A DNA stretch of 32,000 nt from Candidatus Saccharimonadota bacterium (GCA_020632335.1 JACKFV010000001.1:330001-362000), one strand, 5' to 3'; numbered from the stretch's first letter, positions 9,001 to 31,661 are shown. Made by a program: numbers and translations. Notes: generated from the sequence alone by a model not told the origin.

Positions 9001-9952
9001 TAGGGTTGGAGTCGCCAAACAGCGCTTCGGCCCATTCGTCGGTATAGCGGCCATAGGCCCAGTTCTCGAGGTTACGGGCAAAATTCTCGTACTGTGCGCG
9101 GTCATAGCGGGTCATGCCCGGGTTCTGGTACGGCCCGTCAAAGAGGAAGGACCGCATGAGCGACTCCTCGTACGGCACGCTGTAGCTCTTGTCCCACGTC
9201 TCATCGTGGAAGTAACGCAGGCGGTCCGGGTCATCCGCATGGCGGTCATAGAGCCGCGCCAGGGCGTCAAAGTAGGTGCGATAGTCCGCGATGTCGTCGA
9301 AGCGAATAAGGCTCACCACTGCCTCCCAGACGTTATCAGCGTCCTCAGTGCGGGCGTCCTCATCATTCACAAAGAGGCCTTTCTCCTCATTCCACTCATA
9401 GAGCGGCGCGAGGAAGTCCCCGTAGGGGAAGGGGCTCTGCCACACATGGCCGTTTTTCTCCACCACGGGGAGGGGTACCTGCCCAATGAGGATCACGCTG
9501 TCGAGGTAGCTATGAGCCAGCCGTAGGTCAAAATGCGGCGCGAGTACGCCCGCGTGGTGGTCATCTACCCCGGGGGTGGCGGTGGGCTCTAGGCCTTGTA
9601 GGTAGAGGTAGCGCAACCCCGAGTAGAGGGCAAAGACACTGGCGTCCGCGGGCACGGGCACCACCACCGGGGCCACTGCGGCCTGGGCACTGAGGTCCTG
9701 CGCGTAGGCATCTATCTTCCCTCCTAGGGCGTTATAGAGGTTCTCCTCCACCAGCAGTACGGCCAGGGGCGTCATAACCGGTGGCGTGGCGGGCCCCCCC
9801 GGCGCAGCGGTACGGTTGACCAGGTGGTACGCCGGCAGATAGCCCAGTGGTGCGGCGATGGCCACCCAGTGCGGCACGAGCAGACTCACCAGGCACAGGG
9901 CCCCCAGGAAGGAACGCAGGTATCGACGCATTACTGCTGCAGACGGGATCAT
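1..9952 (-). CDS. Giant secreted/surface protein, 3' end beyond the window (at least 3317 codons here): signal peptide, unassigned N-terminal region, S/T/G linker, TSP3-like Ca-binding repeats, P/T linker, Big-like beta domains, coiled-coil region
   Basis: Manual translation of the minus frame (plus-strand codon starts congruent to 2 mod 3). The N-terminus reads (MIPSAAV)MRRYLRSFLGALCLVSLLVPHWVAIAAPLG. Spot checks near 9540-9420 (PHFDLRLAHSYLDSVILIGQVPLPVVEKNGHVWQSPFPY), 8458-8402, 6340-5620, 4100-4020, 3718-3662, 1501-1442 and 19-2 (TRYAPET) all fall in this one frame with no stop. The track lists no minus ORF in this frame over 10 kb, which fits one ORF lacking a stop in the window. Alternative starts are ATG 9931 and ATG 10027; 9952 is favoured because TATCGT ends 6 nt upstream. 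Confidence 0.85.
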   Translation of the reverse strand, partial: MIPSAAVMRRYLRSFLGALCLVSLLVPHWVAIAAPLGYLPAYHLVNRTAAPGGPATPPVMTPLAVLLVEENLYNALGGKIDAYAQDLSAQAAVAPVVVPVPADASVFALYSGLRYLYLQGLEPTATPGVDDHHAGVLAPHFDLRLAHSYLDSVILIGQVPLPVVEKNGHVWQSPFPYGDFLAPLYEWNEEKGLFVNDEDARTEDADNVWEAVVSLIRFDDIADYRTYFDALARLYDRHADDPDRLRYFHDETWDKSYSVPYEESLMRSFLFDGPYQNPGMTRYDRAQYENFARNLENWAYGRYTDEWAEALFGDSNPMEEIPWDLLPPELVPDEIPSGDQDRLPDLLTKNSVQQFTKRYTEAYESFLSHSQQLMNEAGRWSTTQRQTTLQHVTAKDMASALYLKRFNDAVQTHAMQQLEGTRFGSMVSVMEEKHPWWRLRDFMTPQSLVFAGAEYGLIDLFPADQMWRTHYRSQLEAPYCSWSRGYPQVEGYAGEPAEEPMLSKDDERLYSLYYENPRMTTMTERCCRGQLNDNPKPGPIAAEQERLQRLGQSLARGAGGAVLAGEATISQLGTLTEADTAASVNETPPESDTSTDTCSPWDGHLPEPECSLIPRLHWDVRDADIPTYTEAGIAQYGRSLDTGTYACEPVLVAPRYPFSPTETLPSYTQYAQTQPYVPESPLRVWEVDEGRLLMDVHRFWSYMEHLMPTTEDIALQVDDFTAPKTPQDRPWGASWYFGSGNPYRFNLPNIFTHTELATPPVPSTTATVEAFKARVLQMLDDRQQALQETITAENAITQAELAATRTIEWPAIYRETLFEPWLKTAWEQYQDATHLGDLSYTPADVEMHCSYARTEEKLTRDEAYQYKRMDADAIAAYEALTQSAPDITAVTWIESCWLVDAANNYAKVSPTASESSLEYITQYYELHPLVPYYDANALAEDIDFRLLKEALEWIQTPIDEKNVFVLQSLSLAHQGEDNDGTYREPSEELHDWYDGSWNYRGYEVSDMRLTNNSLPVPTVDIVTENRHTRLTTRGPAYDAALEAEAGFLYSETLPPLESLVLEAPKEIPADETPDYQPTPITPPQLPPQNGDYTVEIIVRDGAPSELPTVQPPTPPQPPSTTSGDTTGSTTGSTDGSTDGNTTGTTDGNTSGSTDGTSTGSTTGSTDGTTSGSTDGQTTGTTTGSTSGSTTSGTTSGVTTGTTTPGGSDTDNDGIPDAEDDCPFTAPQEVVDEAGCTDTDLDGYSPDVLVTAPLFDPEDTNACVPNPQHPLCDEDNDGLVGIDDPCPTDSSNACDPSAPLPDSDGDGVPDEDDTCPLTSPKGVVDGTGCTDADDDGAFPDLPPLTPGADPDDANPCIPNLLSPLCDQDNDGTSNAEDPCPADPRNACDPTDPDGDGVPTEDDACPGTLPGASTTPEGCTDADGDETFPDGGTPLDTDDRDPCVPVAGPDCATILPPEPETPPSTPAPETPPPTETPSDDTPPRPTTPGTTPPDRDEGDWELLSDYTDAEATAAAETMMVLCEKRPSLLSLYRVRPDWSVILQLSSFTSLEQQLWRAVLLPLQHRLPAVVTEAEYTQLCSAIVEPDFCLERPLQPPTWDDAVLDFIFCNATYTPKQATQQLTLQASATTTQNATSSTVPGFAPLPLRSDPSAPSLQLDFIVRDSTGAITTALDGMTLQLLTDSPLLQFSQSAIIPMNGRATTTATSGAQAGRVTIILLHPDGTLLSQTTLGAVADDVAQLGMRRQSKYLLQRKEYLQTKILPLDSAGNAVYADGERSLYTAPETEITYIVISLDGKIELEGAGEEGITTLLASRDASAPLKLRARPDTEGVARLAILSPELELESEVSFIIDPDPYLVFDPPTLTVEAGQSTPRLVQFTAYHSDGALLKDYDFVAEVIAENPYVGQFVESEAYIRGGYGAMTVGPGIRAGLAEGVLVAEGIPPQYYHFTVTPSSPAKIEAKLAHHTVAQGQSVGVELQVFDRYRNPIQGMGGAVPLLPAYDDFDAMAHMVAPAGQNIQWQLSTAPSLGAHPITGMPTYGTLYMVAESIPGVVPATFTVEVVRTGPQQDIIPLSLMSVITGVQGLDVDGPADIAAHALATKKTPVVATLAEDPDARLQYGYVGRDGTVGPSLRMEFTPPQTTQLWYGQQLIAQTTTLFTEPSSFVPLSSYRSAPGAFSGGALAIRDSILTRQEAVLRKGVLWVRGVPVIAYKNDGVYIVNTRVTLTPSDARKITEWDLRYDGEFIGIVRAPAVRCGTVRSLELFTAQQLPGLTGESSVSPLCTLFIDPTRSAEPYNALGSDREGIEDVTRASSGNWNGAWQPLSQFAHGVSTTAGHAAQYGANDMLLLMGDPYIRLGTDSPREKEYIATDIGYPVWEGPTNAPIDQLFVANLDTPGEPLTDDLLIRIEDTVYALYNYGGPKHMGGQVPLISHVQEIYPVNVDNDAYTEVIVRYDSGELRCHDNVNGTYVPYDWQPIDPAVARGGVQAPALPPSDIRDPYPLPPAQLPLTTSPCGTALPPEPPTAPDTGPLLPPDALEIIENINVLDLLRGDSDGDGLPDQWDVLPESDQSAPGKQAWTSVSTDLQTQLETEQTVTSSGGMCAGQTKGLSLGFQMDTLSFLGPGKMNIYTPPITVAGPAMPGVPVFWFPLPGTPQTSTFRAYVMPTSSGNVGMAACLMNYGALEPLMIKPQCLYMGLQVQLPGLCPPSVDIPLADALSSNDFLSKSGAGDVHLGARQKQSDPLTDFMGESGRDLSAVNVPDVKATLPVVEGLSPSSSRQESQDELSNLNDHPLANTAEEPVQVPYPVFSPATLEEWDHQREDYLQALDSWEPQHRQELERFKRQWRDEIAIYKQKPYADPAFAAEYETRATTIENQTQDFLEKTAERRDELSQQDSRLQGYDAQKQQLLTVQQQLSTVPEKITEGLEALQGTLNDWGNAQRQRLTEHEEATGAFQQVVSQYADIFSMFDGMSEQFHTGNMERGQIIQLLTKMVLKNVQFPDISLPDFTDLSVSFSGVSASQNLPLPQMQLLPQQSSIPVIPQLSDFTLPDASLGMSAYESTLDTPEELQQPYTPAQLPATAPVPPFQPMTLLPEPKYLAITVPETFSFPIASLPEIGVAPDIPQVKQQLRTVLSTVKVLLKVINLLKKNVLPPQEAALTGANQLRFNRTQRLPRDQSSAPVVEKPHDTEVIEVDGQSLQGLEGLTEQTRQLQTDMRCNMAEIHAAENGDPLTDACENELPDFTVPTATAVPGYRLTFRTTGIAGLNGDPYTPRLPLHDAPEPPLDPTVVTALVRQTLQDLVLEGDPDANYVTENTRYAPET
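5640..6340 (-). repeat. Thrombospondin-type-3-like calcium-binding repeat region inside the giant CDS (protein-level repeats)
   Basis: Codon-by-codon translation gives DTDNDGIPDAEDDCP...GCTDTDLDG...CDEDNDGLVGIDDPCPTDSSNACDP...DSDGDGVPDEDDTCP...GCTDADDDG...CDQDNDGTSNAEDPCPADPRNACDPTDPDGDGVPTEDDACP...GCTDADGDE. The DxDxDG loops have conserved Cys spacing and recur in modules of roughly 75 aa. Confidence 0.7.
6338..6600 (-). repeat. S/T/G-rich low-complexity linker with 60-nt (20-aa) periodicity inside the giant CDS
   Basis: The motif cgtctgtggagcc recurs at about 6431, 6491 and 6551. Translation reads ...TTSGDTTGSTTGSTDGSTDGNTTGTTDGNTSGSTDGTSTGSTTGSTDGTTSGSTDGQTTGTTTGSTSGSTTSGTTSGVTTGTTTPGG. 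Confidence 0.6.
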
Positions 9953-10044
9953 AGCCACACGATAGGCCAGCACCGTAAAAAGCACAAAACTGCTCGACAC
10001 TTTCTCTTGCCTGTGGTATACAGTCATTGTTACATATACTTCTC

Positions 10045-10332
10045 ATGCAGTACCTCACACACCTGGCCTCAGCACATTTTGGCGCTCGACTCCTGAATCA
10101 AAGGAGTATTGGTGAGCAGCTTAAAATAGTGGGTGGATCCATCGGTGAAGGCCTGGGACAGATACCAGAAGCCGCTGGCAGAACTCCAGAGACCGCAGCA
10201 GAGGTAGTAGGTACCACCGCTAAAACAGCTATAGATGGGGGTGCTGCTATGGTAAAAAAAGCCACTAACCTAGGAAAAGAGCATAACAAAACCCCTGACA
10301 GCGACCCCGACAACAAGAAGGGCAAGAAGTAG
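10045..10332 (+). CDS. Small hypothetical protein, Gly/Ala-rich with Lys-rich tail (start uncertain; the track ORF begins at TTG 10027)
   Basis: The ORF ends 25 nt upstream of a good rho-independent terminator on the same strand. It lies in an AT-richer patch whose codon usage differs from its neighbours. No clear promoter or RBS was found, and the overlapping minus ORF 10098..10337 cannot be excluded. Confidence 0.35.
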   Translation: MQYLTHLASAHFGARLLNQRSIGEQLKIVGGSIGEGLGQIPEAAGRTPETAAEVVGTTAKTAIDGGAAMVKKATNLGKEHNKTPDSDPDNKKGKK

Positions 10333-10356
10333 AACACTACCGGTAGCAGCAGCTAG

Positions 10357-10384
10357 AACCCCTCAAAAGTGCTTGAGGGGTTTT
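10357..10384 (+). terminator. Rho-independent terminator
   Basis: The stem cccctcaa (10359-10366) pairs with ttgagggg (10373-10380) around a 6-nt loop and is followed by TTTT (10381-10384). Confidence 0.6.
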
Positions 10385-10406
10385 ATGTATTCGCTATGCT
10401 GCGGCT

Positions 10407-10842: not shown

Positions 10843-11700
10843 CTAGCGACCCTCACGCTCAGCGCTCTGCCGCAAACTCTCCTCAAAGGCGTCTAGGTGA
10901 AACACCCGCGTGTGCCACTTGCCGTCATCGCCCTGCTCTAGGTACTGCAGTACGCCCCCCGTAGCCGAGAGGAACTGCACGGGCGCGGTACTGAGTTGCG
11001 TCTGGGTGTACTCGTCGCCACGCATCCAGAAGAGTAGCACCCCCCCTGTAGATGGCAGATCATAGCCCACCGTCACCCGGGGGGTGGGGGTCGTCATCGA
11101 AGTGGGCACTCCCACCGCAGGAGTAGTCTCTGATAGAGGTTCTCCGGTGTCGGTATTCGTAGAAGAGGCTTCTGGAGATGCTTCTGGAGCCTCAGGTGTG
11201 GCGGTCGCCTCGCTAGCTACAGGAGCAAGGGGGGTATCCGGAGTGGTAGTGGGCACCGGGGGAGATACTAGAGGCGGCTCTATAGGGGCTGTAGTGGCCT
11301 CCTCAGGAGGAGCAGAGGGCTGCTCCAGTGCTTTTATCGGCTTGGGGACGGTGGCACGCTTCTCGGCTACTACTCGGTCAGCCAGCTCTTGCAGTGCTCT
11401 GAGTTCGGCCTCCAGCGCGGGGTTGGGCACCGCCGGGAGCACCACGGTATCCTCACTGGCCTCCATTTGCTCGATGGCGCGTTTCTCCGCCGCGGAGAGA
11501 AAGCCCTGCGCAGCGGTCATCCCCACGTCATTACTCACGCGCGTCACGGGCACGGTACTCTGTATCTTGAGCGGTTCGAAGTCCTGCACCAGCTCGGAGA
11601 AGAGCACCCCACGCTCATCTTGTAGGGCACTGCGTTCGCTCTGGAGGCTACAGCCCGTAACGAGCAGACTCAGCAGCAGAACGAGCCAAAGAGGGTTCAT
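10843..11700 (-). CDS. Lipoprotein with a Pro/Thr/Glu-rich linker
   Basis: The N-terminus MNPLWLVLLLSLLVTGCS carries a lipobox (VTGC). A long P/T/E/A-rich stretch follows. TAGAAT (11707-11712, minus strand) ends 6 nt before the ATG. Confidence 0.8.
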   Translation of the reverse strand: MNPLWLVLLLSLLVTGCSLQSERSALQDERGVLFSELVQDFEPLKIQSTVPVTRVSNDVGMTAAQGFLSAAEKRAIEQMEASEDTVVLPAVPNPALEAELRALQELADRVVAEKRATVPKPIKALEQPSAPPEEATTAPIEPPLVSPPVPTTTPDTPLAPVASEATATPEAPEASPEASSTNTDTGEPLSETTPAVGVPTSMTTPTPRVTVGYDLPSTGGVLLFWMRGDEYTQTQLSTAPVQFLSATGGVLQYLEQGDDGKWHTRVFHLDAFEESLRQSAEREGR

Positions 11701-11741
11701 CAGGGTATTCTACACCAGGCAAGATAAAGAAGGCAAGCGTT

Positions 11742-14456
11742 TTAGCTATCCATCCCTCCCATGGCTCCTGGGGGCGGTGCCATACGCATGGCGTCTGTGG
11801 GGGCCTCTGTCGGCGCGCTATAGTGGGTGCTGGCTATCTGCTCCAGCTTGGCCAGGTTAGTGATGCCCAGCCGCGCCTCTATCTCGGCATCTACAAAGTC
11901 CTTCTGCCGCCCGTACTTCAGCCGGCTGTACTGCTTGAGCACGTCGCGCACCTTGGCCACATGGAGCTCGGGCTGGTAGATAGTAGCGAGGGAGAATGGC
12001 CTGCTGGTGGTGTTATGAATGTTCAGCTTGAGGTAGGCTTTGTAGTTCCCGATGCTGAGGATATCCTGCGCGCTAAGCAGTGGCGCGTACTCCTTTTCGA
12101 GGAATTCAGCGTCGTCTGCCCCTACCTTGAAGCTCATCATTGTCCCCACATTCCCAAAGACCGCATCGCGCACGCGGTTATCCTTCTGCCCGATGGCAAT
12201 GCCGGCTGCTGCCTCGCTCAGCTGCGCGATGTACTGGTGGGCCATGGTTAGCCCCAGGCGGTACTTACGCGCCTCAGAGAGGATCCCCGCGAAGGTATCG
12301 GTGGCGAAGTTCTGGAACTCATCCACGTAGAAGAAGAAGTCCCGGCGGTCCTCCTTGAGCATATCGGCCCGCGCCATAGCGCACATGTTGACCTTACTCA
12401 CCAGCACCAGCCCCAGCAGCTGCGCGTTTATCTGCCCGATTTTTCCCTTACTCAGGCTCACGAGGAGGATCTTCCCCTCGTCCATAATCTTGCGAATATC
12501 AAAGGCGCTGCGCGTCTGCCCGATGATATTCCGCATGGTCACGTTGGTGATAAATGGCCCAAACTTCGAGGTAAAGTAGGGGATCATCTCCTCCTTCTCT
12601 CGGGCACCGGTCTTGGCCATTTCGTTCTCCCAGAAGGCCCGCACAATGGGGTTCGTTACCTTGGTGAGCTTGTACTTCTGGTAAGCGTCGTCGATGAAGA
12701 GCCGGGGGATATCGATGAGCGTGGCAGGCTCCTCCTTATCGCTCATCAGCGTCAGGCAGCCATTACGGAAGTAGTGCTGTATCCGCGGGCCAAAGATCTC
12801 ATTCCCAAAGAGTTTGATGAAGATCTCCATGGCGTCTAGGCTGGCACGCTCGGCTTGCTCGGTGGTCTCTACCTGGAGGAGATTGAGGCCCATGGGGCGC
12901 TCTATATCTGAGGGGTCAAAGACCACCACGTCCTTAGCGCGGTGCTTGGGGACGCGGCTGAGGATATCGTCGATGAGGTCCCCATGCGGGTCTATCACGC
13001 ATACGCCGTCGCCATTAGCGATGTCTTGGCTGGCCATATTCTCCAGCAGTACGGACTTCCCCACCCCGCTCTTCCCCACCACATAGCAGTGCCGCATGCG
13101 GTCCTCACGCAGGATGCGCACTTTCTCCCGCTTACCACGGTAGGTCGTCTCACCGAGAATAATCCCCTCCTCGGGCAGATTTACCGGTGGGGGCAGCACC
13201 TTGTACTCCAGCCATTTTATCGTGCTGATCTTGTTATACCGCGCGTCGGGGAAGTGGTACATGGTGGCCAGTTCCTCGGGGGTGAGGATAGAGTCGTGCT
13301 CGAGGAAATCAAAGAGTCGCAGGTCAAAGTTATGCAGCATAATGGGCGCGTTCAGGCTGTCTATGGGGATGATACGCCGGTTCTCGAACTGGTTCATCCC
13401 CCGCGCAAAGAAGACATTCCACGCCACAAACATGGCGTTGAGGACGGAGTCGGTACGGGTATTAGACTCAGTGGCCACTACCAGCCGCACCGCACAGACA
13501 AACCCCGGCTGATTCGCCTTATCCCCAATGCTCTTGGCGATTTCCTCGTCTGTCTGCAGCATGCGTACGTAGTGGTCGCCTCCGGTGGCGCCCGGCGCGT
13601 TGGTTAGCCCCAGGTCGTCCTCCCGCCCCGCGGTACCAAAGAGCAGCAGCTGGAAGGGCAGCAGCAGGTACTTCAGCACCGTGCCGATGACGGGGATATT
13701 GATCTCCCAGCGGTTGTATTCCCCCTTGAAGAGGTCGGTCCCCTTCTGCCGAGCCTTGGGGCGCCAGCGGTGGTTACGCGGGTGCATGACGATCTGCACG
13801 GCGGCTTTGTCTCGCTCGGTCAGTCCGCTGAAGCTATTAGCGATGGTATTGAGCGGGTCGTCCTCGATCTTCTTATAGGTCTGGATGGGGAACCAGTACT
13901 GCTTCTTCAGGTGCAGGTAGTAGCCGTTGGCGCTCAGGCCCTGGTCTCGGAATTTACGCATCATGAAGCGCTCCTCTAGCGGGATCTCCATGACCTCAGC
14001 TGACTCGTAGAAGCTGGTGATCTGCTTCTCCACGATATTCTGGTAGTACTGGTCACACACCACTACAAAGCTCAACTCCTCGTTCTCGTACTGCAGCTCG
14101 AAGGAAAAGTAGGGTTTGCCCCATATCCAACGCTTAATGAAGATGTTATAGAGGTTGAGGTCTCGCGTCTCGTGCAGCGCGCGGAAGAGCTGCTCGGCCC
14201 GCCCCACCGCCTCGCGGAAGTCCTTCTCTGTCCGGCGTTCGTTATCCAGCTTACTGTCGTTGCGGGGCAGGATAATCTTCAAATGCGCTAGCTCGGGCTG
14301 TTCGTACCAGCGCTTCCAGTACCGCAGCATGGCCCGGAGGAAGTAAAAAAGCGTGAGGATATCCAGCACGCGGAGGAACCACACAAAGGGGAGCCACTCC
14401 AGCAGCGGCTGCAAGAAGCTAAACAGTTGCAGTATCCAGAGGAGTATACTTCCCAT
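11742..14456 (-). CDS. Membrane-anchored TraD/VirD4/TrwB-like (type IV coupling-protein-like) P-loop ATPase
   Basis: The N-terminus is hydrophobic (MGSILLWILQLFSFLQPLLEWLPFVWFLRVLDILTLFYFL). Walker A is VVGKSGVGKS and Walker B is FFFYVDEFQNF. The TMAHQYIAQL motif and the overall layout are typical of coupling-protein/HerA-like ATPases. Family assignment is by eye. Confidence 0.8.
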   Translation of the reverse strand: MGSILLWILQLFSFLQPLLEWLPFVWFLRVLDILTLFYFLRAMLRYWKRWYEQPELAHLKIILPRNDSKLDNERRTEKDFREAVGRAEQLFRALHETRDLNLYNIFIKRWIWGKPYFSFELQYENEELSFVVVCDQYYQNIVEKQITSFYESAEVMEIPLEERFMMRKFRDQGLSANGYYLHLKKQYWFPIQTYKKIEDDPLNTIANSFSGLTERDKAAVQIVMHPRNHRWRPKARQKGTDLFKGEYNRWEINIPVIGTVLKYLLLPFQLLLFGTAGREDDLGLTNAPGATGGDHYVRMLQTDEEIAKSIGDKANQPGFVCAVRLVVATESNTRTDSVLNAMFVAWNVFFARGMNQFENRRIIPIDSLNAPIMLHNFDLRLFDFLEHDSILTPEELATMYHFPDARYNKISTIKWLEYKVLPPPVNLPEEGIILGETTYRGKREKVRILREDRMRHCYVVGKSGVGKSVLLENMASQDIANGDGVCVIDPHGDLIDDILSRVPKHRAKDVVVFDPSDIERPMGLNLLQVETTEQAERASLDAMEIFIKLFGNEIFGPRIQHYFRNGCLTLMSDKEEPATLIDIPRLFIDDAYQKYKLTKVTNPIVRAFWENEMAKTGAREKEEMIPYFTSKFGPFITNVTMRNIIGQTRSAFDIRKIMDEGKILLVSLSKGKIGQINAQLLGLVLVSKVNMCAMARADMLKEDRRDFFFYVDEFQNFATDTFAGILSEARKYRLGLTMAHQYIAQLSEAAAGIAIGQKDNRVRDAVFGNVGTMMSFKVGADDAEFLEKEYAPLLSAQDILSIGNYKAYLKLNIHNTTSRPFSLATIYQPELHVAKVRDVLKQYSRLKYGRQKDFVDAEIEARLGITNLAKLEQIASTHYSAPTEAPTDAMRMAPPPGAMGGMDS

Positions 14457-14519
14457 TCATCGCCAGTATACGAGAAAAAAGCGTCACTGGCTACCCAAAT
14501 CTCTGGTAAATAGAAGGGG

Positions 14520-14798: not shown

Positions 14799-14822
14799 GG
14801 ATTGCTTGCCAAATCGTGAGTG

Positions 14823-14850
14823 ACTGTACCACCTAGAGCGCGCCTGTCAA
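14823..14850 (-). promoter_or_regulatory. Candidate rpmA promoter (TTGACA, 16 nt, TACAGT)
   Basis: On the minus strand the -35 TTGACA is at 14845-14850 and the -10 TACAGT at 14823-14828. This leaves a leader of roughly 18 nt before ATG 14798. Confidence 0.4.
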
Positions 14851-14858
14851 ATATTCTG

Positions 14859-14886
14859 TTGACACTCTCTCTGGCGGCCCTACAAT
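14859..14886 (+). promoter_or_regulatory. rpsU promoter (TTGACA, 16 nt, TACAAT) placed for a leaderless transcript
   Basis: The -35 is at 14859-14864 and the -10 at 14881-14886. The ATG at 14893 lies exactly 6 nt after the -10, and no Shine-Dalgarno sequence is possible in that gap. Confidence 0.55.
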
Positions 14887-14892
14887 GCGGGC

Positions 14893-15102
14893 ATGATACA
14901 GGTGAAGAAGCACGAGAACGAATCCAGCGACAAGCTGCTCAAGCGGCTGAGCAACCACGTGAAGCACACTAAACTGCTGCAGCAGTGGCGTAAGCGACGT
15001 TACTTCACCCAAGAACCACGGAAGAATGTAGCCCGTGCCGCGGCCGTGGTACGAGAAGCGCACCGCAAAGAAAACCTCAAAAAGCAGTACCAGAGCCTCT
15101 AG
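14893..15102 (+). CDS. rpsU: 30S ribosomal protein S21
   Basis: This is a 69-aa basic protein. MIQVKKHENESSDKLLKRLSNHVKHTKLLQQWRKRRYFTQEPRK follows the S21 pattern (V.V..nE..d.alrrfkr...k.g.l.e.r.r.y.kP). Confidence 0.75.
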   Translation: MIQVKKHENESSDKLLKRLSNHVKHTKLLQQWRKRRYFTQEPRKNVARAAAVVREAHRKENLKKQYQSL

Positions 15103-15139
15103 AGCGCTGCGTACACCTGCAGGGGAGGGGGAGTAACAG

Positions 15140-15160
15140 GGTCACAAGCGTGGCCTTTTT
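15140..15160 (+). terminator. Rho-independent terminator after rpsU
   Basis: The stem ggtcac pairs with gtggcc (one G-U pair) around the loop aagc and is followed by TTTTT (15156-15160). Confidence 0.5.
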
Positions 15161-15196
15161 ATTTGCTGGGCGCAGCGGACTCACTACCATGGGGGC

Positions 15197-16114
15197 ATGG
15201 TATTTCCGCTCCCCCTGCAGTCGCTGTGGCAGCTCTGGCGGCTGCGTACCCGCAAGGAGCTCCTCCAGTGGGGCATTGCAGCGCTACAGGCCGTGGAGTC
15301 GGCGCCATTAGACGCTGAGCTGCTCCTCACCAGCAGCCTGCAGGTGAGCCGCACCGCACTGCGCACGGGAAGCGAAGAACCGGTATCCCTCCAGCAGAAG
15401 CAGCGCTATCTCTCGGCCATCACCGCCCGACGAAGTGGCACGCCGGTGGCCTACATCACCGGGCAGAAGGAGTGGGCCGATATGACGCTCACCATAACGC
15501 CAGCGGTGCTTATCCCTCGGCCGGAGACGGAGGAGCTGTGCCATATCATTGTGGAAGAGGCGCGCGATACCCCCCCCAGGAGCGTGCTGGACGTGGGTAC
15601 GGGGTCGGGGTGCGTGGCGCTCTTTATGGCTCGGGCCTACCCGCAGGCGGTGGTCACGGCGCTGGATAGCTCAGCAGCGGCACTGGCTATAGCACGAAAA
15701 AACGCCCAGACGCAGCAGCTTCCGCTCCAGATGCTGCACAGTGACCTGCTGCGGAAGGTAGCACGCAAGACCGTCTATGACCTCGTTATCGCGAATCTGC
15801 CCTATGTGCCTGATGACCGGCCGCTGAGCGCCGAGGTAGAGCGAGAACCCCAGAGCGCTCTGCGAGGGGGGAAGGGCGACGGTAGTGGGGTGATGAGGCG
15901 CTTCCTCCGGCAGCTGGTGGACTGGGAGATAGCGTGGCGGGAGTGCTGGCTGGAATTTGACCCACCGCAGAAGGATGCCCTCTTTAGCTATGCGGAGAGC
16001 CTGGGCATCACCGAGTGCGTCTTCTATAAGTCCCTCGACGACGAGTGGAGGTTCGTGCGGTTGCAACGCACCACGCCATCTCTGTCAATCCCCTCACAGA
16101 CAGCAGGCGTATAG
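15197..16114 (+). CDS. prmC: Release-factor glutamine N5-methyltransferase (HemK/PrmC family)
   Basis: The SAM-binding motif is VLDVGTGSGCVAL and the catalytic NPPY-type motif is IANLPYVP. TACCAT (15185-15190) ends 6 nt before the ATG. Confidence 0.85.
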   Translation: MVFPLPLQSLWQLWRLRTRKELLQWGIAALQAVESAPLDAELLLTSSLQVSRTALRTGSEEPVSLQQKQRYLSAITARRSGTPVAYITGQKEWADMTLTITPAVLIPRPETEELCHIIVEEARDTPPRSVLDVGTGSGCVALFMARAYPQAVVTALDSSAAALAIARKNAQTQQLPLQMLHSDLLRKVARKTVYDLVIANLPYVPDDRPLSAEVEREPQSALRGGKGDGSGVMRRFLRQLVDWEIAWRECWLEFDPPQKDALFSYAESLGITECVFYKSLDDEWRFVRLQRTTPSLSIPSQTAGV

Positions 16115-16179: not shown

Positions 16180-16256
16180 GGGCCTATAGCTCAGCTGGCT
16201 AGAGCGTTCGCATGGCATGCGAGAGGTCGTGAGTTCGAATCTCACTAGGTCCACCA
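16180..16256 (+). tRNA. tRNA-Ala (anticodon GGC), CCA encoded
   Basis: Hand-folded cloverleaf: acceptor GGGCCTA/TAGGTCC with the G3:U70 Ala identity pair, anticodon loop ATGGCAT, and T-loop TTCGAAT. Confidence 0.9.
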
Positions 16257-16311
16257 TTGTGTGTCGTACTCAACAGCTTGTATCTTATGACGATGATGGT
16301 AGAGTAGAAAA

Positions 16312-16866
16312 ATGCAAGTGGTAAACAAACACATCAAATTCCTCCTCTCCACGAATGGAGTTATTCTCTTCTCTGGTGCGCTGCTAGGGCCAATATATGC
16401 GCTTTTTGTCGAAGAGATTGGGGGAGATATTCTAGACGCAGGATTGGCTGGGGCTGTATTTGCTTTGTCTGCAGGGCTCACAAGCCTTATTGTGGGATTC
16501 AAGGGAGATACAATTCAAAATAAAGCACATGTTTTAGCGCTCGGGTATGGAGTTATTGCTCTCGGTTTTTTCTCCTATACGTTCGTGAATTCGATGACAA
16601 CATTGCTGGTAGCACAGGTCATCGTCGGCTTCGGAGAAGCTCTCTATAGCCCTATGTTTGATGCGCTCTATTCACGACATCTTGATGAAGGGCATTTTTC
16701 TTCTGAATGGGAAATTTGGGAGTGTATGAATTACTGGGTGAGCTGCATTGCAGCTTTGATAGGGGCCTTCTTTGTAGAGCAATACGGGTTTACACTTCTC
16801 TTTATTGTTATGGGAATACTGGCTCTATTGAGCGCCATACGGGTTTTGTTATGGTCGAAAAAATAG
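16312..16866 (+). CDS. Six-helix membrane protein resembling one half of an MFS transporter
   Basis: Six hydrophobic segments are visible. GFKGDTIQNK resembles MFS motif A between helices 2 and 3 of a half-domain. The segment is AT-richer than its flanks. TAGAGT (16300-16305) ends 6 nt before the ATG. Confidence 0.7.
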   Translation: MQVVNKHIKFLLSTNGVILFSGALLGPIYALFVEEIGGDILDAGLAGAVFALSAGLTSLIVGFKGDTIQNKAHVLALGYGVIALGFFSYTFVNSMTTLLVAQVIVGFGEALYSPMFDALYSRHLDEGHFSSEWEIWECMNYWVSCIAALIGAFFVEQYGFTLLFIVMGILALLSAIRVLLWSKK

Positions 16867-17180: not shown

Positions 17181-17195
17181 ACGGAATAAAAGAAA

Positions 17196-17272: not shown

Positions 17273-17288
17273 ACAAAGAACCAGGCCA

Positions 17289-17631: not shown

Positions 17632-17639
17632 ATTATGTT

Positions 17640-18430: not shown

Positions 18431-18431
18431 C

Positions 18432-23281: not shown

Positions 23282-23367
23282 AGGTATACGGGGGCTAGCC
23301 TAGACTGGCAAAGTCTAGACGCCTAAGCGCGGTTGTCAACTGTATCTGGGCGAATCACTAGGCAGAC

Positions 23368-24852: not shown

Positions 24853-24893
24853 GCCCCTACCATAAGGAGTCCTTCCACCGAAGCAAGTGAATC

Positions 24894-27623
24894 TTACCCA
24901 CGTCGTCGCCCGTAGTAGAACACCAGCCCGCCACACACCAGGGCGATGAAGATGGGGAGCATTCTGCCTACCGCACCGGTACTGACGTTCTCCGTCACGG
25001 GGATGGGGGACGAATCACTGCAGTTGGGGCCGGCGGTTACGGCGTTGCTCGGCTCGCCCTTCAGGCCCTCGCTGTCGATAGCCGTCACGCGGAAAGTGTA
25101 GTCCTCACACGCGGTCAGCGGCTCCACCAGCCACTTGGTGCGGTTGTCGGGCGTCAGCTGCTCTTTGCACACGGGGGCATCACCAGTGCTGCAGTACTGC
25201 ACGATGTAGGCCTCTATATCCGAAAGGCTGATGCTGGGGGTCCAGAGGAGGCTGACGGCCATATCTTCGGGGAAGGCCTGGAGGTTACTGGGGGCGGTTG
25301 GCGCATTGCCGGCTAGCGGGTCGTCACTGGGAGGATTGGGGCACATGGGGTCGTGCTGCTTGTCCGTGGTGCCTACGGCGCAGGGGGTCAGTGCGGACTC
25401 GAACATATTGGGGACCTTATCGCCATCGTCGTCGGTGTCGGTGCCCTGCTCATCACTGTCGGGGATGCCATCACCGTCGGTGTCCCTCGTCGTGATATTG
25501 GCCGGACTAAACGCCCCTTCCACCAGAAGCGCCGCCACGCCATACGCGTCGTAGATCACCGGGCGGGTTGTCTCGGGGTCCTGATTATCAGGGGTGCCGT
25601 TGCCATTACTATCGACGGTATTGCTCTCCAGCGCGTCCAGCACGCCGTCGTCATCGGTATCCATCATCTCCTCGGTGTTGAGAATCCCATCACCGTCCAG
25701 GTCATCGGTCTGGTTCTCTAGCACGTCTGGCAGGCCATTTGTATTCCCGTCCCAGTAGTTGGCGCGCACGGGCAGGCCGTCCAGCTCATTGGGGATGCCA
25801 TCGCCGTCGGTGTCGTTGTCGGTATCCATCACATCAGGGATGCCGTCGCCGTCTTCGTCAGCGGTATTACTCTCGGCCCAGTCAGGCACGCCGTCGCCGT
25901 CGCTATCGTACATTTCTAGTAAATCAATCGCCCCATCGCCATCACTATCGGCAAAGAGGAGATCCTCCCGCAGGTCATAGGGGGCCTCTTCGCTGGCAGA
26001 CTCACCGCAGATGGTGATGGTCGCGGCGGCTTTCTGATCCACACTATTACCCAGGGTATCAGCCGCCTGCACGTCTATGGGGTAGTCACCACAGGCCGAG
26101 GGGCCGATGAAGGTACCGGTGAATACCTCACCGCTGGGGCTAAACTCTTTGATTACCCCCTCGAAAGTAACCGTCACGCTGGAGAGGGGCTCTGAGGCCT
26201 TGACGTTGACCGTGAACTCGGTAGACGGGTCCAGCGTGGTGCTGGGCAGCACTTCCACATTCAGCGCCTGGGGGGGGCTACGGTCTATCTGCACCTGTAC
26301 GGGGTCTGACTGCACCGCGGCGTCGCCCGCACACTGCACCACAAAGGTATGCGCGCCGTCACCCAGCGTGGGGGTCTGCTGCACATAGGTACCGTTGAGC
26401 TCTATGCTGACATTCTCGAAGATCGTCTCGGTGTTATCCAGCACGTCTACCGCGCCACTGGCGCACAGGGCCTCCCCGCTGATGGTCAGGCGCTGGTTGT
26501 TATACGTGCCCGCGCGGGGCGTTTTTATCGTCACAAAGGGCGTCCCGGTCATGGGCGCGCCCGCATCTTCGCCGATCACCACGCCGTTCCACTCGCCATT
26601 AATGCGGATGTCGCTGAGGTCATAGACGCTGAGGAACTGGCTGCCTGGAGTCAAGAACCGCACCGCCAGCGCAAAGGAATGCTTGCCCTGGTCAGCAGGA
26701 GTGAAGGTGTAGTCGGTGGGCAGCACCGCGCTATCATCCGACGAGCTAAACCGTACCGTGCCGCGGTAGTCGGGCAGCACGTTGCCGTCGGCGTCGCGGG
26801 CCTCTACCGTTAGGGTCTGGTTGACATTCTGCTGCACGCTGTCGGGGAGTCCCACTACCGTGAAGTAGGCCACCGTGGCCTCCAGGAGGTCTTGGGTGTC
26901 ATTAAAGAGCTGCGCCTGGAGAAAACTCCCCAGTCCACGTGCTGAGCGGCTAGCGGTGATGTCCGCCTCCGGGGCGCTCTGGAGGAAGGGGCTGGGGGTA
27001 AAGACCACCTGCGGACGGGTCTGCAGCGTGATGTCCTCGGCCGTGATGGTGAGGATCGACACGCCAGATTCCGTGCTGGTGAGAGTGATGATGGCCTGCC
27101 CGCGACTGTCGGTGCTGCGCGGGGACTGCACGGCGTCTGCGGCACGACTGGAGTGCACCGTGAAGGGCGTATTACTCATGGGGTTCTTATAGGCGTCTAC
27201 CAGCTGCAGGGTGAGTACGGCGGCGGTCTGTCCATCGGCCACGGTGGAGCCCTCCCCCACCGTCACAGTAGACTGGTAGGCGCTTGGGAGCCCTGGAGCC
27301 ACGCTAAAGCTGGTACTGACGTCTTGCCCACTGCCGCGCAGCACGTCTGCCCGGTAGCGCCCTGCGGCCGTCACGTGCGTGGCATAGATGCTGCTCTGCA
27401 CCTCTCCCCAGGCGTCGGCCGTCAGTGTGATGGGCACGCGGGTACTGTTGGGCTTAGTGATGGCGAGGGTAATAGCCTCCTCACTCGTGAGCCCGGTAAT
27501 GCGAACGGGGGCGTCCTGCCCGGCGCTGGTGTCGCTGATCTGCATCCAGACGCTGGCCGCGGCCATGAGCGGCGCCAGCCCCACAGAGAGGATCGAGAGC
27601 AAGAGAGAGTACAGGAAGCGCAT
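24894..27623 (-). CDS. Type-I anchored surface protein: signal peptide, Big-like domains, Ca-binding DxDxDG repeats, FN3-like domain, C-terminal TM anchor
   Basis: The signal peptide is MRFLYSLLLSILSVGLAPLMAAASV. A Big_1-like segment reads TVADGQTAAVLTLQLVDAYKNPMSNTPFTV...TDSRGQAIITLTS. The repeats read DSDGDGAIDLLEMYDSDGDGVPDWAE...DEDGDGIPDVMDTDNDTDGDGIPNELDG...DTDGDGIPDSDEQGTDTDDDGDKVPN. The C-terminus is MLPIFIALVCGGLVFYYGRRRG. Confidence 0.85.
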   Translation of the reverse strand: MRFLYSLLLSILSVGLAPLMAAASVWMQISDTSAGQDAPVRITGLTSEEAITLAITKPNSTRVPITLTADAWGEVQSSIYATHVTAAGRYRADVLRGSGQDVSTSFSVAPGLPSAYQSTVTVGEGSTVADGQTAAVLTLQLVDAYKNPMSNTPFTVHSSRAADAVQSPRSTDSRGQAIITLTSTESGVSILTITAEDITLQTRPQVVFTPSPFLQSAPEADITASRSARGLGSFLQAQLFNDTQDLLEATVAYFTVVGLPDSVQQNVNQTLTVEARDADGNVLPDYRGTVRFSSSDDSAVLPTDYTFTPADQGKHSFALAVRFLTPGSQFLSVYDLSDIRINGEWNGVVIGEDAGAPMTGTPFVTIKTPRAGTYNNQRLTISGEALCASGAVDVLDNTETIFENVSIELNGTYVQQTPTLGDGAHTFVVQCAGDAAVQSDPVQVQIDRSPPQALNVEVLPSTTLDPSTEFTVNVKASEPLSSVTVTFEGVIKEFSPSGEVFTGTFIGPSACGDYPIDVQAADTLGNSVDQKAAATITICGESASEEAPYDLREDLLFADSDGDGAIDLLEMYDSDGDGVPDWAESNTADEDGDGIPDVMDTDNDTDGDGIPNELDGLPVRANYWDGNTNGLPDVLENQTDDLDGDGILNTEEMMDTDDDGVLDALESNTVDSNGNGTPDNQDPETTRPVIYDAYGVAALLVEGAFSPANITTRDTDGDGIPDSDEQGTDTDDDGDKVPNMFESALTPCAVGTTDKQHDPMCPNPPSDDPLAGNAPTAPSNLQAFPEDMAVSLLWTPSISLSDIEAYIVQYCSTGDAPVCKEQLTPDNRTKWLVEPLTACEDYTFRVTAIDSEGLKGEPSNAVTAGPNCSDSSPIPVTENVSTGAVGRMLPIFIALVCGGLVFYYGRRRG

Positions 27624-27750
27624 GCGGGTCGGGGCTAGTATGCTGGAAATTGTTGACAGAGCAATCTCTCTGGTGCGAAAGGCTCTTGACAGGGGGAGAA
27701 TCTCCAGCTGTCGTTATAGTCTAGCACGACTCTGTGGGGGGCTGCAAGTA

Positions 27751-27779
27751 TTGACACGATGTGAAAAATCAACCATACT
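27751..27779 (+). promoter_or_regulatory. Candidate ssrA promoter (TTGACA, 17 nt, CATACT)
   Basis: The -35 is at 27751-27756 and the -10 at 27774-27779. The mature tmRNA 5' end lies 33 nt downstream of the -10, which implies a processed precursor. Confidence 0.45.
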
Positions 27780-27812: not shown

Positions 27813-28258
<446 letters not shown>

Positions 28259-28264: not shown

Positions 28265-28340
28265 GGGTGAGTAGCTCAGTCGGTAGAGCACCTGGCTCTT
28301 AACCAGTTGGTCGAGAGTTCGAATCTCTCCTCACCCACCA
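28265..28340 (+). tRNA. tRNA-Lys (anticodon CTT), CCA encoded
   Basis: GGGTGAGTAGCTCAGTCGGTAGAGCACCTGGCTCTTAACCAGTTGGTCGAGAGTTCGAATCTCTCCTCACCCACCA folds as a cloverleaf with one 27:43 mismatch. It starts 6 nt after the tmRNA. Confidence 0.85.
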
Positions 28341-29704
28341 TTGACATCGCACAGGTTATCAGAACCCCCTTGAGGGGTTTTTGGTGTATTTGGAGGCGTT
28401 TTTATTCCTCCGTCAGAATCTTCATTCGGCGAAGGAAACCATAGGTCGATAGAAATATCGTTTCCTTTGATTTTGATTTTCTTGATGATTTCAAAATACA
28501 GCTCTCTTTTTTCGTCGTATGTGAGAGCTTCAAAATTCTTTCGATATTTTCGAGTGGCTCGCTCAATAGAAAAGAGTTTTTCCTGTTTCTGTTCTTCTGT
28601 AACGAGCTTTCCCGAAAGCACTTCTCTTTCATCTTTGAAATCCGCAATTTCTTTTATGATAATTTCCAAATCCAAGGCGACTTCATCGGGTGTATAAGTG
28701 CCTCTTCTTACCAATTCTTTTACTGTTTTTTCTCCTTCAGCTAATCTGGCAATTTCGGTTGTAATATTCTTGATTCTCAGATTGATTGCTTCAATCTCTT
28801 CTGGTTTTCTTTGGTCGGCAATCATTTTTTCCAATAATTTTCTTGGATTTCTAAAAAATGGTTCAACATATTGCCAAACAATACCGTCAAGAATCTCCTC
28901 TGATATTCCGTGCGAAGGACATTTGAAAGGTGTGCCACTTCCTTTGTTTTTACAGCGATAGTTTTTTGTTCCTTTTCCTGCCTTGTAGCCAGTGTATTTC
29001 AAACCACAGCCGTCTTCACCGCACCAAATTTTTCCAGTAAAAAGATAGTCATTTTTCCTTCCTCCTGATTTTGCTTTATTCTCTTTGAGCCTTTCTTTTG
29101 CTCTCTTGAAAATTGGCTCATCAATAATCGGAGCACAATCATACTTCTGCCACTCACTTTTCGGTTTTTCTATATTCTTCCTCGTCTTTTTGTCTCTGGT
29201 GTAGCGATTGTAATAATAACGACCGATATAATGCTCTCTTTTGAAAATCTCTCGAATAAACATTTTCCTTACGATAGAGGCTTCTTTTTCGTTGATAACC
29301 AAGGTTTGCGTTTCTTCATCAACATCGTAGCCGTAAGGAATTGAGCCACCAACATACTTTCCTTCTTTGGCTTTTGTCATTTTTCCTTCCATCGTTCTTT
29401 GCAGTATCAACTCTCTTTCAAATTCAGCGAGAGCACCCATCATTTGAAAAACGAGTTTCCCGACTGCCGAAGTGTCAAATTGTTCTGTGGCTGATTTGAA
29501 TTGTACCTCGTGTTCACCCAAGAATTTCACATATCGCAAAAGATATTCGAGCTTCCTGAAAAAACGGTCTATTTTCCAAACTAAAACCAAATCGAACTTT
29601 TTATCGACTGCGTCTTGTAAAAGTCTCTTGAATGCGGGTCTCTCATCACTTGCTCCGCTTTCTCCCTCGTCTCTGTATATCCATTCTTTTTTAGGACTTG
29701 GCAA
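28331..29704 (-). pseudogene. Large serine recombinase, 5'-truncated with the catalytic-Ser region missing
   Basis: The resolvase-domain remnant starts at ...WIYRDEGESGASDERPAFKRLL...VWKIDRFFRK, which corresponds to roughly residue 45 onward of this domain. The recombinase domain, the zinc ribbon (CGEDGCGLKYTG...YRCKNKGSGTPFKCPSHG) and the coiled-coil region are retained. The first three codons (TTG CCA AGT) are contributed by the IS end that begins at 29694. Confidence 0.75.
28363..28382 (+). terminator. Rho-independent terminator after tRNA-Lys
   Basis: The stem aacccc pairs with ggggtt around the loop cttga and is followed by a T-run. Confidence 0.5.
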
Positions 29705-30068
29705 TTTAGTATAGAGAAGTAGAGTGAGAGTATGAAATGTCCAAACTGTACGGCAACGGAAAACAGAAAATCAGGGAAGATACGAGACAAACAACGATAC
29801 GAATGTAAGAAGTGTGGGTGCCACTTTACGCAGTCCTATAAAGGGTTTGTGCCGCCTGTGCTCAAACTTTTGGCCTGCGTATTATATATGAATGGGCTCG
29901 GATTTAGGAGAATCGCAGCCCTCTTAAATGTGAGCCATCAGAGCGTGCAGCAGTGGATAAAACGCTACGCGAGTCAGATGCAAAAGCAGTTTCCGATTGA
30001 CAAAAAAGCCCGCCATGTGCGGGTTATTCAGCTGGATGAGATGTGGCACTATGTGGGTAAAAAAAACG
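29694..30068 (+). repeat. Left 375-bp inverted repeat (IS end, insA, and A8 slippery run)
   Basis: This is the reverse complement of 30424-30798. I saw one mismatch (C at 30049 against T, synonymous His). The two InsA copies are identical through VGKKN in the track translations. Confidence 0.85.
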
Positions 30069-30082
30069 GGCATTGGCACTAA
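29732..30082 (+). CDS. Orphan IS1 InsA copy (zinc finger plus HTH), no InsB downstream
   Basis: MKCPNCTATENRKSGKIRDKQRYECKKCGCHF... has a CxxC...CxxC zinc finger followed by an HTH (GFRRIAALLNVSHQSVQQWIKRY). The sequence diverges right after the A-run. Confidence 0.7.
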   Translation: MKCPNCTATENRKSGKIRDKQRYECKKCGCHFTQSYKGFVPPVLKLLACVLYMNGLGFRRIAALLNVSHQSVQQWIKRYASQMQKQFPIDKKARHVRVIQLDEMWHYVGKKNGHWH

Positions 30083-30760
30083 AATATAGATAATACAGGG
30101 GCGAAGAAAAAAGCCAGAGCGTGCTGGATACCATGGCAACACTCTTTGAGTAGCAGAGAGTTTTTCTATGGAATCGAGCGAGATAATGCCGCACTCTGCA
30201 GTTGGCCGACTCGATGCGTTGGGTGTGTTTTTTCCCGATGAGGTGCTGGCTTGGGGGCAGGATTTTTCGGTACACTTTCCAACTATCAGTCGCATAAAAG
30301 TCGCACTGGATGTGGCTTATTTGGTCTAGGAGTCTTCGGAGCGTCTTGCTTCCTCGGCTCCCAATTTCGAACCCGAGGACCTCTCCTGTGTCCGCGCAAA
30401 GAGCAATCCAAATCCACAATTTTCGTTTTTTTTACCCACATAATGCCACATCTCATCCAGCTGAATAACCCGCACATGGCGGGCTTTTTTGTCAATCGGA
30501 AACTGCTTTTGCATCTGACTCGCGTAGCGTTTTATCCACTGCTGCACGCTCTGATGGCTCACATTTAAGAGGGCTGCGATTCTCCTAAATCCGAGCCCAT
30601 TCATATATAATACGCAGGCCAAAAGTTTGAGCACAGGCGGCACAAACCCTTTATAGGACTGCGTAAAGTGGCACCCACACTTCTTACATTCGTATCGTTG
30701 TTTGTCTCGTATCTTCCCTGATTTTCTGTTTTCCGTTGCCGTACAGTTTGGACATTTCAT
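30024..30760 (-). CDS. IS1-family transposase InsAB' (requires a -1 frameshift on the A8 run at 30426-30433)
   Basis: The InsA frame is 30326..30760. The -1 frame (track ORF 30024..30419) gives WIWIALCADTGEVLGFEIGSRG...YATDSWKVY...GKKHTQRIESANCRVRHYLARFHRKTLCYSKS. The DDE candidates are in LDEMW, TDSW and IESAN. The 3' end runs into the left repeat, so the natural stop is uncertain. Confidence 0.7.
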
Positions 30761-30798
30761 ACTCTCACTCTACTTCTCTATACTAAATTGCCAAGTCC
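30424..30798 (-). repeat. Right 375-bp inverted repeat
   Basis: See the left copy. Identity ends immediately after the A8-CG run. Confidence 0.85.
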
Positions 30799-30998: not shown

Positions 30999-31628
30999 CT
31001 AGGCGTCACGCTTACGCAGCACGGTGTCAATGATGCCGCTCTTCCCGTATGCCGCGGCCTCAGGCGCGGTGAGGTAGTTGTCGCGGTCCATATCGCGCAC
31101 TATCTTGTCATAGTCGTCCTCACCCGTGCGCTGCATCACTATCCGATAGAGTTTCTCACGGGTGCTGAGCAGGTGCCGCGTATGGATCTCTATATCGCTT
31201 GCCTGGCCACTCAGCCCCCCACCCCCTATAAGCGGCTGGTGGATGAGGATCTCGCTATTCGGCAGAGCGTAACGCTTCCCTGGGGCACCGCACATCAGCA
31301 ACATGCTCCCCATGCTGGCCGCTAGCCCCACGCAGATGGTCGCCACATCGGGCTTGATAAAGTCCATCACGTCAATGATCGCCATGCCCGCAGAGATACT
31401 CCCCCCAGGGGAATTAATATACAGTGTGATGTCCTTGCTGCTATCCACCGACTCGAGAAAGAGCAGCTGCGCAATGATGAGATTGGCCATGTCATCTCCC
31501 ACCGGCCCGGTAGCAAAGACAATTCGGTCCTTCAGCAGGCGGCTGAAAATATCATACGAGCGCTCTCCCAGGGGGGTTTTCTCCACCACCATGGGGACGA
31601 GCTGGTTCTGGAAAGGGTCTGTAGACAT
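30999..31628 (-). CDS. clpP: ATP-dependent Clp protease proteolytic subunit
   Basis: Canonical ClpP sequence is present ([15 protein letters not shown]...[14 protein letters not shown]...[11 protein letters not shown]...ILIHQPL...[15 protein letters not shown]). The start is set to MSTDPFQ (ATG 31628) because TATAGT (31635-31640) ends 6 nt upstream. Confidence 0.93.
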
Positions 31629-31634
31629 GCCCCC

Positions 31635-31661
31635 ACTATAGCAAATCTCGACCAGATGCAA
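31635..31661 (-). promoter_or_regulatory. Candidate clpP promoter (TTGCAT, 15 nt, TATAGT), leaderless geometry
   Basis: On the minus strand the -10 is at 31635-31640 and the -35-like TTGCAT at 31656-31661. Confidence 0.45.

Follow-up and report, generated by a model that had tools for sequence, protein, structure and literature searches.

Promoters placed six nucleotides before start codons point to leaderless mRNAs in a 32-kb stretch of a Candidate Phyla Radiation genome

In the bacterial genomes that GeneMarkS-2 assigns to its group C, among them those of Mycobacterium tuberculosis, Streptomyces, Corynebacterium, and members of Deinococcus-Thermus such as Deinococcus deserti, genes that come first in their operon have a Pribnow box 6 to 8 nucleotides (nt) from the start (PMC6028130). 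Here we describe a comparable layout in a window of 32,000 nt, that is, the whole stretch of DNA that was analyzed (JACKFV010000001.1, positions 330001 to 362000, assembly GCA_020632335.1, filed under Candidatus Saccharimonadota bacterium), in which a bipartite motif, TTGnnn-(15-18)-TAnnnT, recurs immediately upstream of start codons; positions below are counted from the first letter of the window. As in group C, the −10 hexamer TAnnnT lies 6 to 8 nt before the start codon of first-in-operon genes (at 6 nt in 10 of 17 protein genes and at 8 nt in an ATPase gene), and such genes are predicted here to have no 5′ untranslated region (UTR) and no Shine-Dalgarno (SD) site, with the start codon at the 5′ end of the mRNA. 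Unlike in group C, the TTG of the −35 box is well conserved, and whereas the leadered and operon-internal genes of group C use SD sites, no start in the window does (0/18). The apparent leaderless share differs as well, being about 65% of transcription units in this small sample compared with the 25 to 50% predicted for bacterial group C (PMC6028130). The presence of SD sites on the remaining genes belongs to the dual model of GeneMarkS-2 and not to leaderless genes as such.

Two other described systems share part of this pattern. Like the genomes of group B (Bacteroidetes and cyanobacteria), the window has genes without SD sites, ribosomal-protein genes included; in group B, however, an A-rich non-SD signal stands before all genes of leadered mRNAs, whereas in the window the motif belongs to a promoter that has a −35 box, and operon-internal genes lack it. 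Archaeal group D (haloarchaea) also combines a high leaderless fraction with a constant promoter-to-start distance, but its promoter, a TATA box, lies about 26 nt upstream, whereas the motif described here occupies positions −12 to −7 and is accompanied by a bacterial −35 box. In D. deserti, the leaderless share is near 60%. The architecture itself is already known; what is new is the lineage and the absence of SD sites from the remaining genes, together with an apparent leaderless share that is high in a small sample. A literature search returned no paper linking leaderless mRNAs to the Candidate Phyla Radiation (CPR), Patescibacteria, Saccharibacteria, or Peribacteria.

An initial annotation had listed eight genes with a TAnnnT hexamer ending exactly 6 nt before the ATG, and all eight sites were found with the coordinates, hexamers, and spacings that it gave. 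On the plus strand, they precede a 139-amino-acid (aa) open reading frame (ORF), here called ORF10407 (TTGAGG-16-TATGCT-6-ATG 10407; promoter at 10373 to 10406), rpsU (TTGACA-16-TACAAT-6-ATG 14893; 14859 to 14892), whose boxes match the consensus at 11 of 12 positions, prmC (TTGCTG-16-TACCAT-6-ATG 15197; 15163 to 15196), and a half-size MFS gene (TTGTAT-16-TAGAGT-6-ATG 16312; 16278 to 16311), where the promoter lies just 3′ of a tRNA-Ala gene. On the minus strand, they precede a giant gene (TTGTGC-17-TATCGT-6-ATG 9952; 9953 to 9987), a lipoprotein gene (TTGCCT-18-TAGAAT-6-ATG 11700; 11701 to 11736), an M32 carboxypeptidase gene (TTGCTT-16-TATGGT-6-ATG 24852; 24853 to 24886), and clpP (TTGCAT-15-TATAGT-6-ATG 31628; 31629 to 31661). 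The two variants that had been reported with an 8-nt distance were likewise found as quoted, one before a VirD4-like ATPase gene (TAGCCA-17-TATACT-8-ATG 14456; 14457 to 14493, minus strand) and one before a 59-codon ORF (TTGACA-16-TATAGT-8-ATG 17640; 17604 to 17639, plus strand), the latter being also compatible with TTGACA-18-TAGTAT-6. A scan of both strands added this 59-codon ORF and two copies of an apparently IS-borne HTH gene to the 6-nt sites; the copies share the promoter TTGGCA-16-TAGAGT and lie at 29698 to 29731 (plus strand, 6 nt before ATG 29732, in one arm of an inverted repeat) and at 30761 to 30794 (minus strand, 6 nt before ATG 30760).

When both strands of the whole window were searched for TAnnnT followed by k nt and ATG, 16 matches were obtained at k = 6, and in 11 of these the ATG begins an ORF of 50 aa or more that represents a gene or probable gene, compared with 2 to 13 matches, mostly within genes, at each of the other spacings from 3 to 11. 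The compound pattern, with a TTG added at a spacer of 15 to 19 nt, occurs at only 12 sites in 64 kb (two strands), 11 of which are gene starts, the remaining one opening a 4-codon ORF within the MFS promoter. In the curated set of 17 protein genes, which leaves out the 59-codon ORF, 10 have TAnnnT exactly 6 nt before the ATG, although the background frequency of the hexamer is 0.80% across the window and 1.74% at the remaining offsets of these upstream regions; the corresponding binomial probabilities are 2e-17 and 4.5e-14. A −35 TTG at a spacer of 15 to 18 nt is present at all ten sites (background, 5%), and the start codon is ATG at all ten. Because both HTH genes sit in a 99% identical inverted repeat, nine of the ten sites are independent. 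The earlier assertion that such recurrence cannot be chance is thus backed by 10 of 17 genes at a probability of 4.5e-14 or lower.

Judged from its sequence and from where it occurs, the TTGnnn-(15-18)-TAnnnT motif is a sigma-70-type promoter rather than a ribosome signal, because the bipartite motif also stands before a tRNA-Ala/tRNA-Met operon (TTGACA-16-TACATT, 17289 to 17316, minus strand) and before the tmRNA gene (TTGACA-17-CATACT, 27751 to 27779, plus strand). It is not present before the operon-internal genes rpsL and rpsG. A consensus promoter scan independently reported the promoters of rpsU, the lipoprotein gene, the ATPase gene, the 59-codon ORF, and both HTH copies, and 12 promoter-like sites were observed between 9.5 and 20.5 kb, compared with 4.0 ± 2.0 in shuffled sequences; the scan found no promoter-like site over the 10 kb of the giant gene. 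Further, a terminator hairpin with a T run downstream of rpsU (15138 to 15157, plus strand; −12.1 kcal/mol, z = −3.0) abuts the −35 box of prmC, and a hairpin at 10352 to 10385 (plus strand; −19.8 kcal/mol, z = −4.85), followed by UUUU (to 10392), has the −35 box of ORF10407 (TTGAGG) as its 3′ arm. As these terminators abut the prmC and ORF10407 promoters, they leave no room for an upstream transcription start. Two same-strand spacers of 41 base pairs (bp), at 11701 to 11741 (ATPase gene to lipoprotein gene) and 24853 to 24893 (909-aa protein gene to M32 gene), each contain one promoter and nothing else.

Some promoter-like sequences in the same region deserve separate mention. The sole candidate transcript for the 10352 to 10392 hairpin is that of an ORF at 10045 to 10332, which has atypical codon-position G+C and no Pfam match; it was left uncounted, having TATACT-4-ATG, no −35 box, and a third-position G+C (GC3) of 0.46. 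L27 (minus strand) and bS21 (plus strand) have back-to-back promoters at 14823 to 14886, whose −35 boxes form TGTCAA-atattctg-TTGACA; L27 is leadered (24 nt), whereas bS21 is of the leaderless type. A TAGCCA-17-TATACT sequence at 16201 to 16173 was rejected as a promoter, being the antisense strand of tRNA-Ala. Within the 3′ end of rpoC, 84 to 90 nt before rpsL, lies TTGACG-16-TATTAT with an extended −10 TG (19527 to 19500, minus strand); it could be an internal rpsL-rpsG promoter, but it overlaps conserved coding sequence and may be coincidental.

The geometry is informative only if the start codons are correct. Of the 10 distinct sites (the two HTH copies taken as one and the 59-codon ORF included), 7 have an in-frame stop 4 to 21 codons upstream with no ATG, GTG, or TTG in between; for ORF10407, the stop is 11 codons upstream and no other start intervenes. 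The ATPase gene has an in-frame stop codon directly upstream of ATG 14456. The lipoprotein begins MNPLWLVLLLSLLVTGC, that is, with a signal peptide and lipobox from residue 1, and the 909-aa protein has a signal peptide from residue 1. Codon-position G+C is typical of coding sequence in this window for ORF10407 (GC3, 0.80) and for the 59-codon ORF (GC3, 0.73; second-position G+C, 0.33). The promoter geometry had been credited with resolving ambiguous starts in the M32, clpP, and giant genes, and Pfam coordinates and N-terminal sequences bear this out for the first two. From ATG 24852, the Pfam match of the M32 protein begins at residue 6, and an upstream GTG would extend the protein by 28 residues; from ATG 31628, ClpP has a typical ClpP N terminus with a Pfam match from residue 21, and an upstream GTG would add 13 residues, the promoter itself among them. 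The giant gene, by contrast, stays ambiguous: upstream of ATG 9952, the same frame contains four GTG codons and a further ATG, which makes the start of this gene the least secure of the set. Its protein resembles a signal peptide at the N terminus when read from 9952 and has no significant Pfam domain, a TSP_3 repeat being matched below threshold only.

An SD core (GGAG, GAGG, or AGGA) was sought in the 20 nt before each of 18 starts and was present at none of them, whether leaderless, leadered, or operon internal. A start-independent spacing profile of the window is flat, with no SD signal, whereas the same profile gave clear SD peaks in control loci drawn from the matches among GTDB species representatives, namely, those of Clostridia (peak at k = 8, with 64 of 164 ORFs) and Actinobacteria (peak at k = 6, with 44 of 400). 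The initial annotation had missed three leadered, SD-less exceptions, all on the minus strand: L27 (rpmA; TTGACA-16-TACAGT-24-ATG 14798, 14799 to 14850), rpoC (TTGACA-16-TAGACT-30-ATG 23281, 23282 to 23339), and the 909-aa protein gene (TTGCTC-16-CATACT-13-ATG 27623, 27624 to 27664). It had described pyrimidine runs and no SD site before the operon-internal rpsL and rpsG, which start 11 nt past the preceding stop at ATG 19409 and ATG 18987 (18988 to 19420, minus strand); the runs (ctctccttcgt and ctctttctct) are indeed seen on the coding strand, and the suspicion that the wrong strand had been read was rejected on this ground. Because leadered L27 and rpoC and internal rpsL and rpsG also lack SD sites, initiation in the window appears to be SD independent for leaderless and leadered genes alike.

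The lineage bears on how far this can be generalized. The window has 59% G+C, and its RpoC (19421 to 23281, minus strand) is 100% identical to MCB9809677.1, a protein encoded on a 630,865-bp contig of an uncultivated metagenome-assembled genome and annotated “Candidatus Peribacteria bacterium”; the second-best match among 5.8 billion proteins searched has 64% identity, the RpoC cluster has one NCBI member in the protein database, and GTDB species representatives reach at most 51% identity among the matches listed, with CPR, Chloroflexi, and Actinobacteria at the top. As the closest other RpoC is only 64% identical and the listed GTDB representatives are at 51% or less, these protein comparisons place the source organism in an isolated CPR lineage. 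“Ca. Peribacter riflensis,” a described member of the class, has a genome of 1.25 Mb with 58.5% G+C (PMC4736985). Six contigs from relatives of the Peribacteria/Gracilibacteria class were compared (L081, L083, L086, L087, L088, and L089; RpoC 55 to 64% identical, 37 to 56% G+C, about 20 genes each). In all six, no SD motif was found before the called starts, and the upstream sequence is pyrimidine or A rich. In these contigs, the gap between the best promoter match and the ATG is mostly 17 to 60 nt and only in a minority of cases 6 to 10 nt; orthologous promoters are not comparable, because the relatives are too distant (RpoC identity of 64% or less). On this evidence, SD absence seems to be a clade trait, and the tight abutment of promoter and ATG seems to be specific to, or far stronger in, the lineage of the window. 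The gene order rpoC-rpsL-rpsG is found in five of the six relatives (62 to 64% RpoC identity) but not in L087 (55%), where a Na/Ca-exchanger gene separates rpoB and rpoC; in the window, rpoC is not beside rpoB but has the M32 peptidase gene upstream, and rpoC-rpsL-rpsG are contiguous with no fusA after rpsG.

Bacterial transcription usually starts 7 nt downstream of the −10 hexamer, within a range of 6 to 9 nt. If the hexamer ends 6 nt short of the ATG, the start is therefore predicted on the A of this codon, and the transcription starts considered here were derived from this usual distance and from the pyrimidine(−1)/A(+1) context. The preference for a pyrimidine at −1 and a purine at +1 is established and is the topic of PMC12641261; in the window, a pyrimidine immediately precedes the start-codon A at 8 of 11 sites (7 of 10 with the HTH copies as one). 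We hypothesize that sigma-70-type promoters are positioned so that RNA polymerase would begin at the A of the ATG, that the resulting mRNAs would have neither a 5′ UTR nor a ribosome-binding site, and that, by analogy, the 5′-terminal AUG would be bound directly by the ribosome and initiator tRNA without SD pairing. Promoter identity, spacing, start context, and the start-codon checks support this leaderless interpretation, which the initial annotation had put forward, and we give a probability of about 0.8 to transcription starting at the A of the ATG at these genes. The layout is found in about 10 or 11 of the approximately 16 protein-coding transcription units of the window (about 65%); the ATPase gene has a predicted leader of 0 to 1 nt, and the 909-aa protein gene has one of about 6 nt. 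It would let intergenic spacers contract to about 41 bp, the length of one promoter, and such promoter-only spacers fit a small, gene-dense CPR genome.

The 6-nt spacers are G rich and alike at prmC (GGGGGC, 15191 to 15196), the M32 gene (AGGGGC, 24853 to 24858), clpP (GGGGGC, 31629 to 31634), and rpsU (GCGGGC, 14887 to 14892). They could be a discriminator-type element and, on the leaderless interpretation, would not be transcribed. They were rejected as displaced SD sites, because the distance of 0 to 1 nt between their end and the ATG is too short for such a site and because they precede the predicted transcription start.

Several points weigh against the leaderless interpretation or limit its reach. 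No 6-nt spike was seen in the spacing profiles of the six relatives' contigs, which are small samples, and the comparison thus does not support a conserved geometry. The start of the giant gene, the least certain of the sites, was partly picked by the geometry itself. The term “predominantly leaderless,” as originally applied, would extrapolate from about 16 transcription units in 32 kb. In addition, the choice of start can vary by 1 to 2 nt, and some transcripts may therefore have leaders of 1 to 3 nt.

This last point leads to the main alternative, namely, that the promoters are real but that transcription begins 1 to 5 nt before the ATG at many genes, giving very short leaders. The bacterial range of 6 to 9 nt from the −10 hexamer would allow it, and the distances at the ATPase gene (8 nt) and the 909-aa protein gene (13 nt) indicate that spacing is not absolutely fixed. 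We nevertheless consider it improbable, though not negligible, given that ten sites fall at exactly 6 nt, the modal distance, and that a pyrimidine precedes the A at 8 of 11 sites; moreover, leaders of up to 5 nt are counted as leaderless in differential RNA sequencing (dRNA-seq) studies cited in PMC6028130.

A second alternative holds that the transcripts are leadered, arising from unseen upstream promoters, and that TAnnnT is a non-SD signal read by the ribosome, as in the Bacteroidetes-like group B. Since SD sites are missing throughout the window, its leadered genes need some other signal, and the relatives are also SD-less, both of which would suit this proposal. Yet the motif is always paired with TTGnnn at promoter spacing, it stands before tRNA and tmRNA genes, and it is missing at rpsL, rpsG, L27, and rpoC, the genes that would most need such a signal. 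Further, terminators lie directly upstream of two sites, and any upstream promoter for the genes that follow the 41-bp spacers would need to reside within the preceding gene. Leadered transcripts with a ribosome-read TAnnnT are therefore very unlikely. A third explanation, chance or a selection of start codons to fit the pattern, is refuted by the present analysis. Three of the eight starts first listed (M32, clpP, and the giant gene) had indeed been picked via the geometry, but the binomial probability is 4.5e-14 or lower, no other start codon is available at 7 of the 10 distinct sites, Pfam domain positions and N-terminal residues confirm where the M32 protein and ClpP begin, and the spacing profile spikes at k = 6 only.

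The gene map of the window was built from Pfam, ARAGORN, and Rfam. The giant gene encodes a putative secreted protein of more than 3,317 aa and extends from ATG 9952 past the window edge (1 to 9952, minus strand). It is followed by ORF10407 (10407 to 10826, plus), the lipoprotein gene (10843 to 11700, minus), the VirD4-like ATPase gene (11742 to 14456, minus), L27 (14520 to 14798, minus), bS21 (14893 to 15102, plus; Pfam score of 28.1 bits against a cutoff of 27), and PrmC (15197 to 16114, plus). The bS21 gene is thus present here despite the frequent loss of bS21 in Peregrinibacteria (PMC9297842). Next come tRNA-Ala (16180 to 16256, plus), the half-size MFS gene (16312 to 16866, plus), a cluster of tRNA-Met, tRNA-Ala, and tRNA-Ser (17105 to 17550, minus), the 59-codon ORF (17640 to 17819, plus), an ORF of 204/205 aa (17816 to 18433, minus), the genes for S7, S12, and RpoC (18496 to 23281, minus), the M32 carboxypeptidase gene (23368 to 24852, minus), the gene for a 909-aa surface protein with Big_1 and fn3 domains (24894 to 27623, minus), tmRNA (27813 to 28258, plus), tRNA-Lys (28265 to 28340, plus), a low-GC island (about 28.3 to 30.8 kb), and ClpP (30999 to 31628, minus). 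No rRNA genes were found in the window or in the loci of five relatives.

Two parts of this map are atypical. The half-size MFS gene, located between tRNA genes, encodes 184 aa matching positions 4 to 171 of the 347 in Pfam MFS_1 and has a GC3 of 0.43, compared with 0.7 to 0.8 in other genes; it is possibly a foreign fragment or pseudogene, though it has a full leaderless-type promoter. The island after tmRNA and tRNA-Lys has 42% G+C and carries a serine recombinase gene (28331 to 29704, minus strand) whose Resolvase match begins only at profile position 34, and the N terminus of the recombinase therefore appears to be missing. It also holds the inverted repeat (29694 to 30075 and 30417 to 30798), with arms of 382 nt that are 99% identical and 341 nt apart, each comprising the promoter and the first ~111 codons of a zinc-finger/HTH_23 gene. 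The two copies (ATG 29732, plus; ATG 30760, minus) differ at the C terminus only (116 versus 144 aa) and, with a DEMWHYVGKK motif, resemble IS1 InsA. The island resembles a decayed integrative element that occupies a tmRNA/tRNA site.

For genome annotation, the layout means that gene finders expecting a ribosome-binding site will misplace starts, and under a longest-ORF rule ClpP would gain 13 residues and the M32 protein 28, whereas the promoter-ATG rule yields start calls at single-base precision. The 41-bp promoter-only spacers illustrate how layout can serve genome compaction. In a study of CPR ribosomes, loss of the anti-SD sequence was found only in a Parcubacteria subgroup, bS1 was short in CPR, and bS21 was frequently lost in Peregrinibacteria (PMC9297842). 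We tentatively propose, as a possibility that we rate below even odds, that the Peribacteria lineage sampled here may have abandoned SD-guided initiation, with well over half of its transcription units leaderless genome-wide and the rest relying on unstructured pyrimidine- or A-rich leaders. To our knowledge, CPR ribosomes are reduced and translation initiation in CPR is unstudied. If the proposal is true, such a level of leaderless transcription, otherwise typical of haloarchaea, would be found in the first CPR organism shown to depend on leaderless translation; and as the relatives are SD-less yet mostly leadered, promoters would have shifted onto start codons recently, within one clade. If the pattern is genome-wide, it would provide a testable case of SD-free initiation in leaderless and leadered genes together and would make CPR a further group, besides Actinobacteria and Deinococcus-Thermus, in which leaderless expression dominates. 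It would also connect direct recognition of a 5′-terminal AUG with the reduced CPR ribosome, which has a short bS1 and frequently lacks bS21 (PMC9297842).

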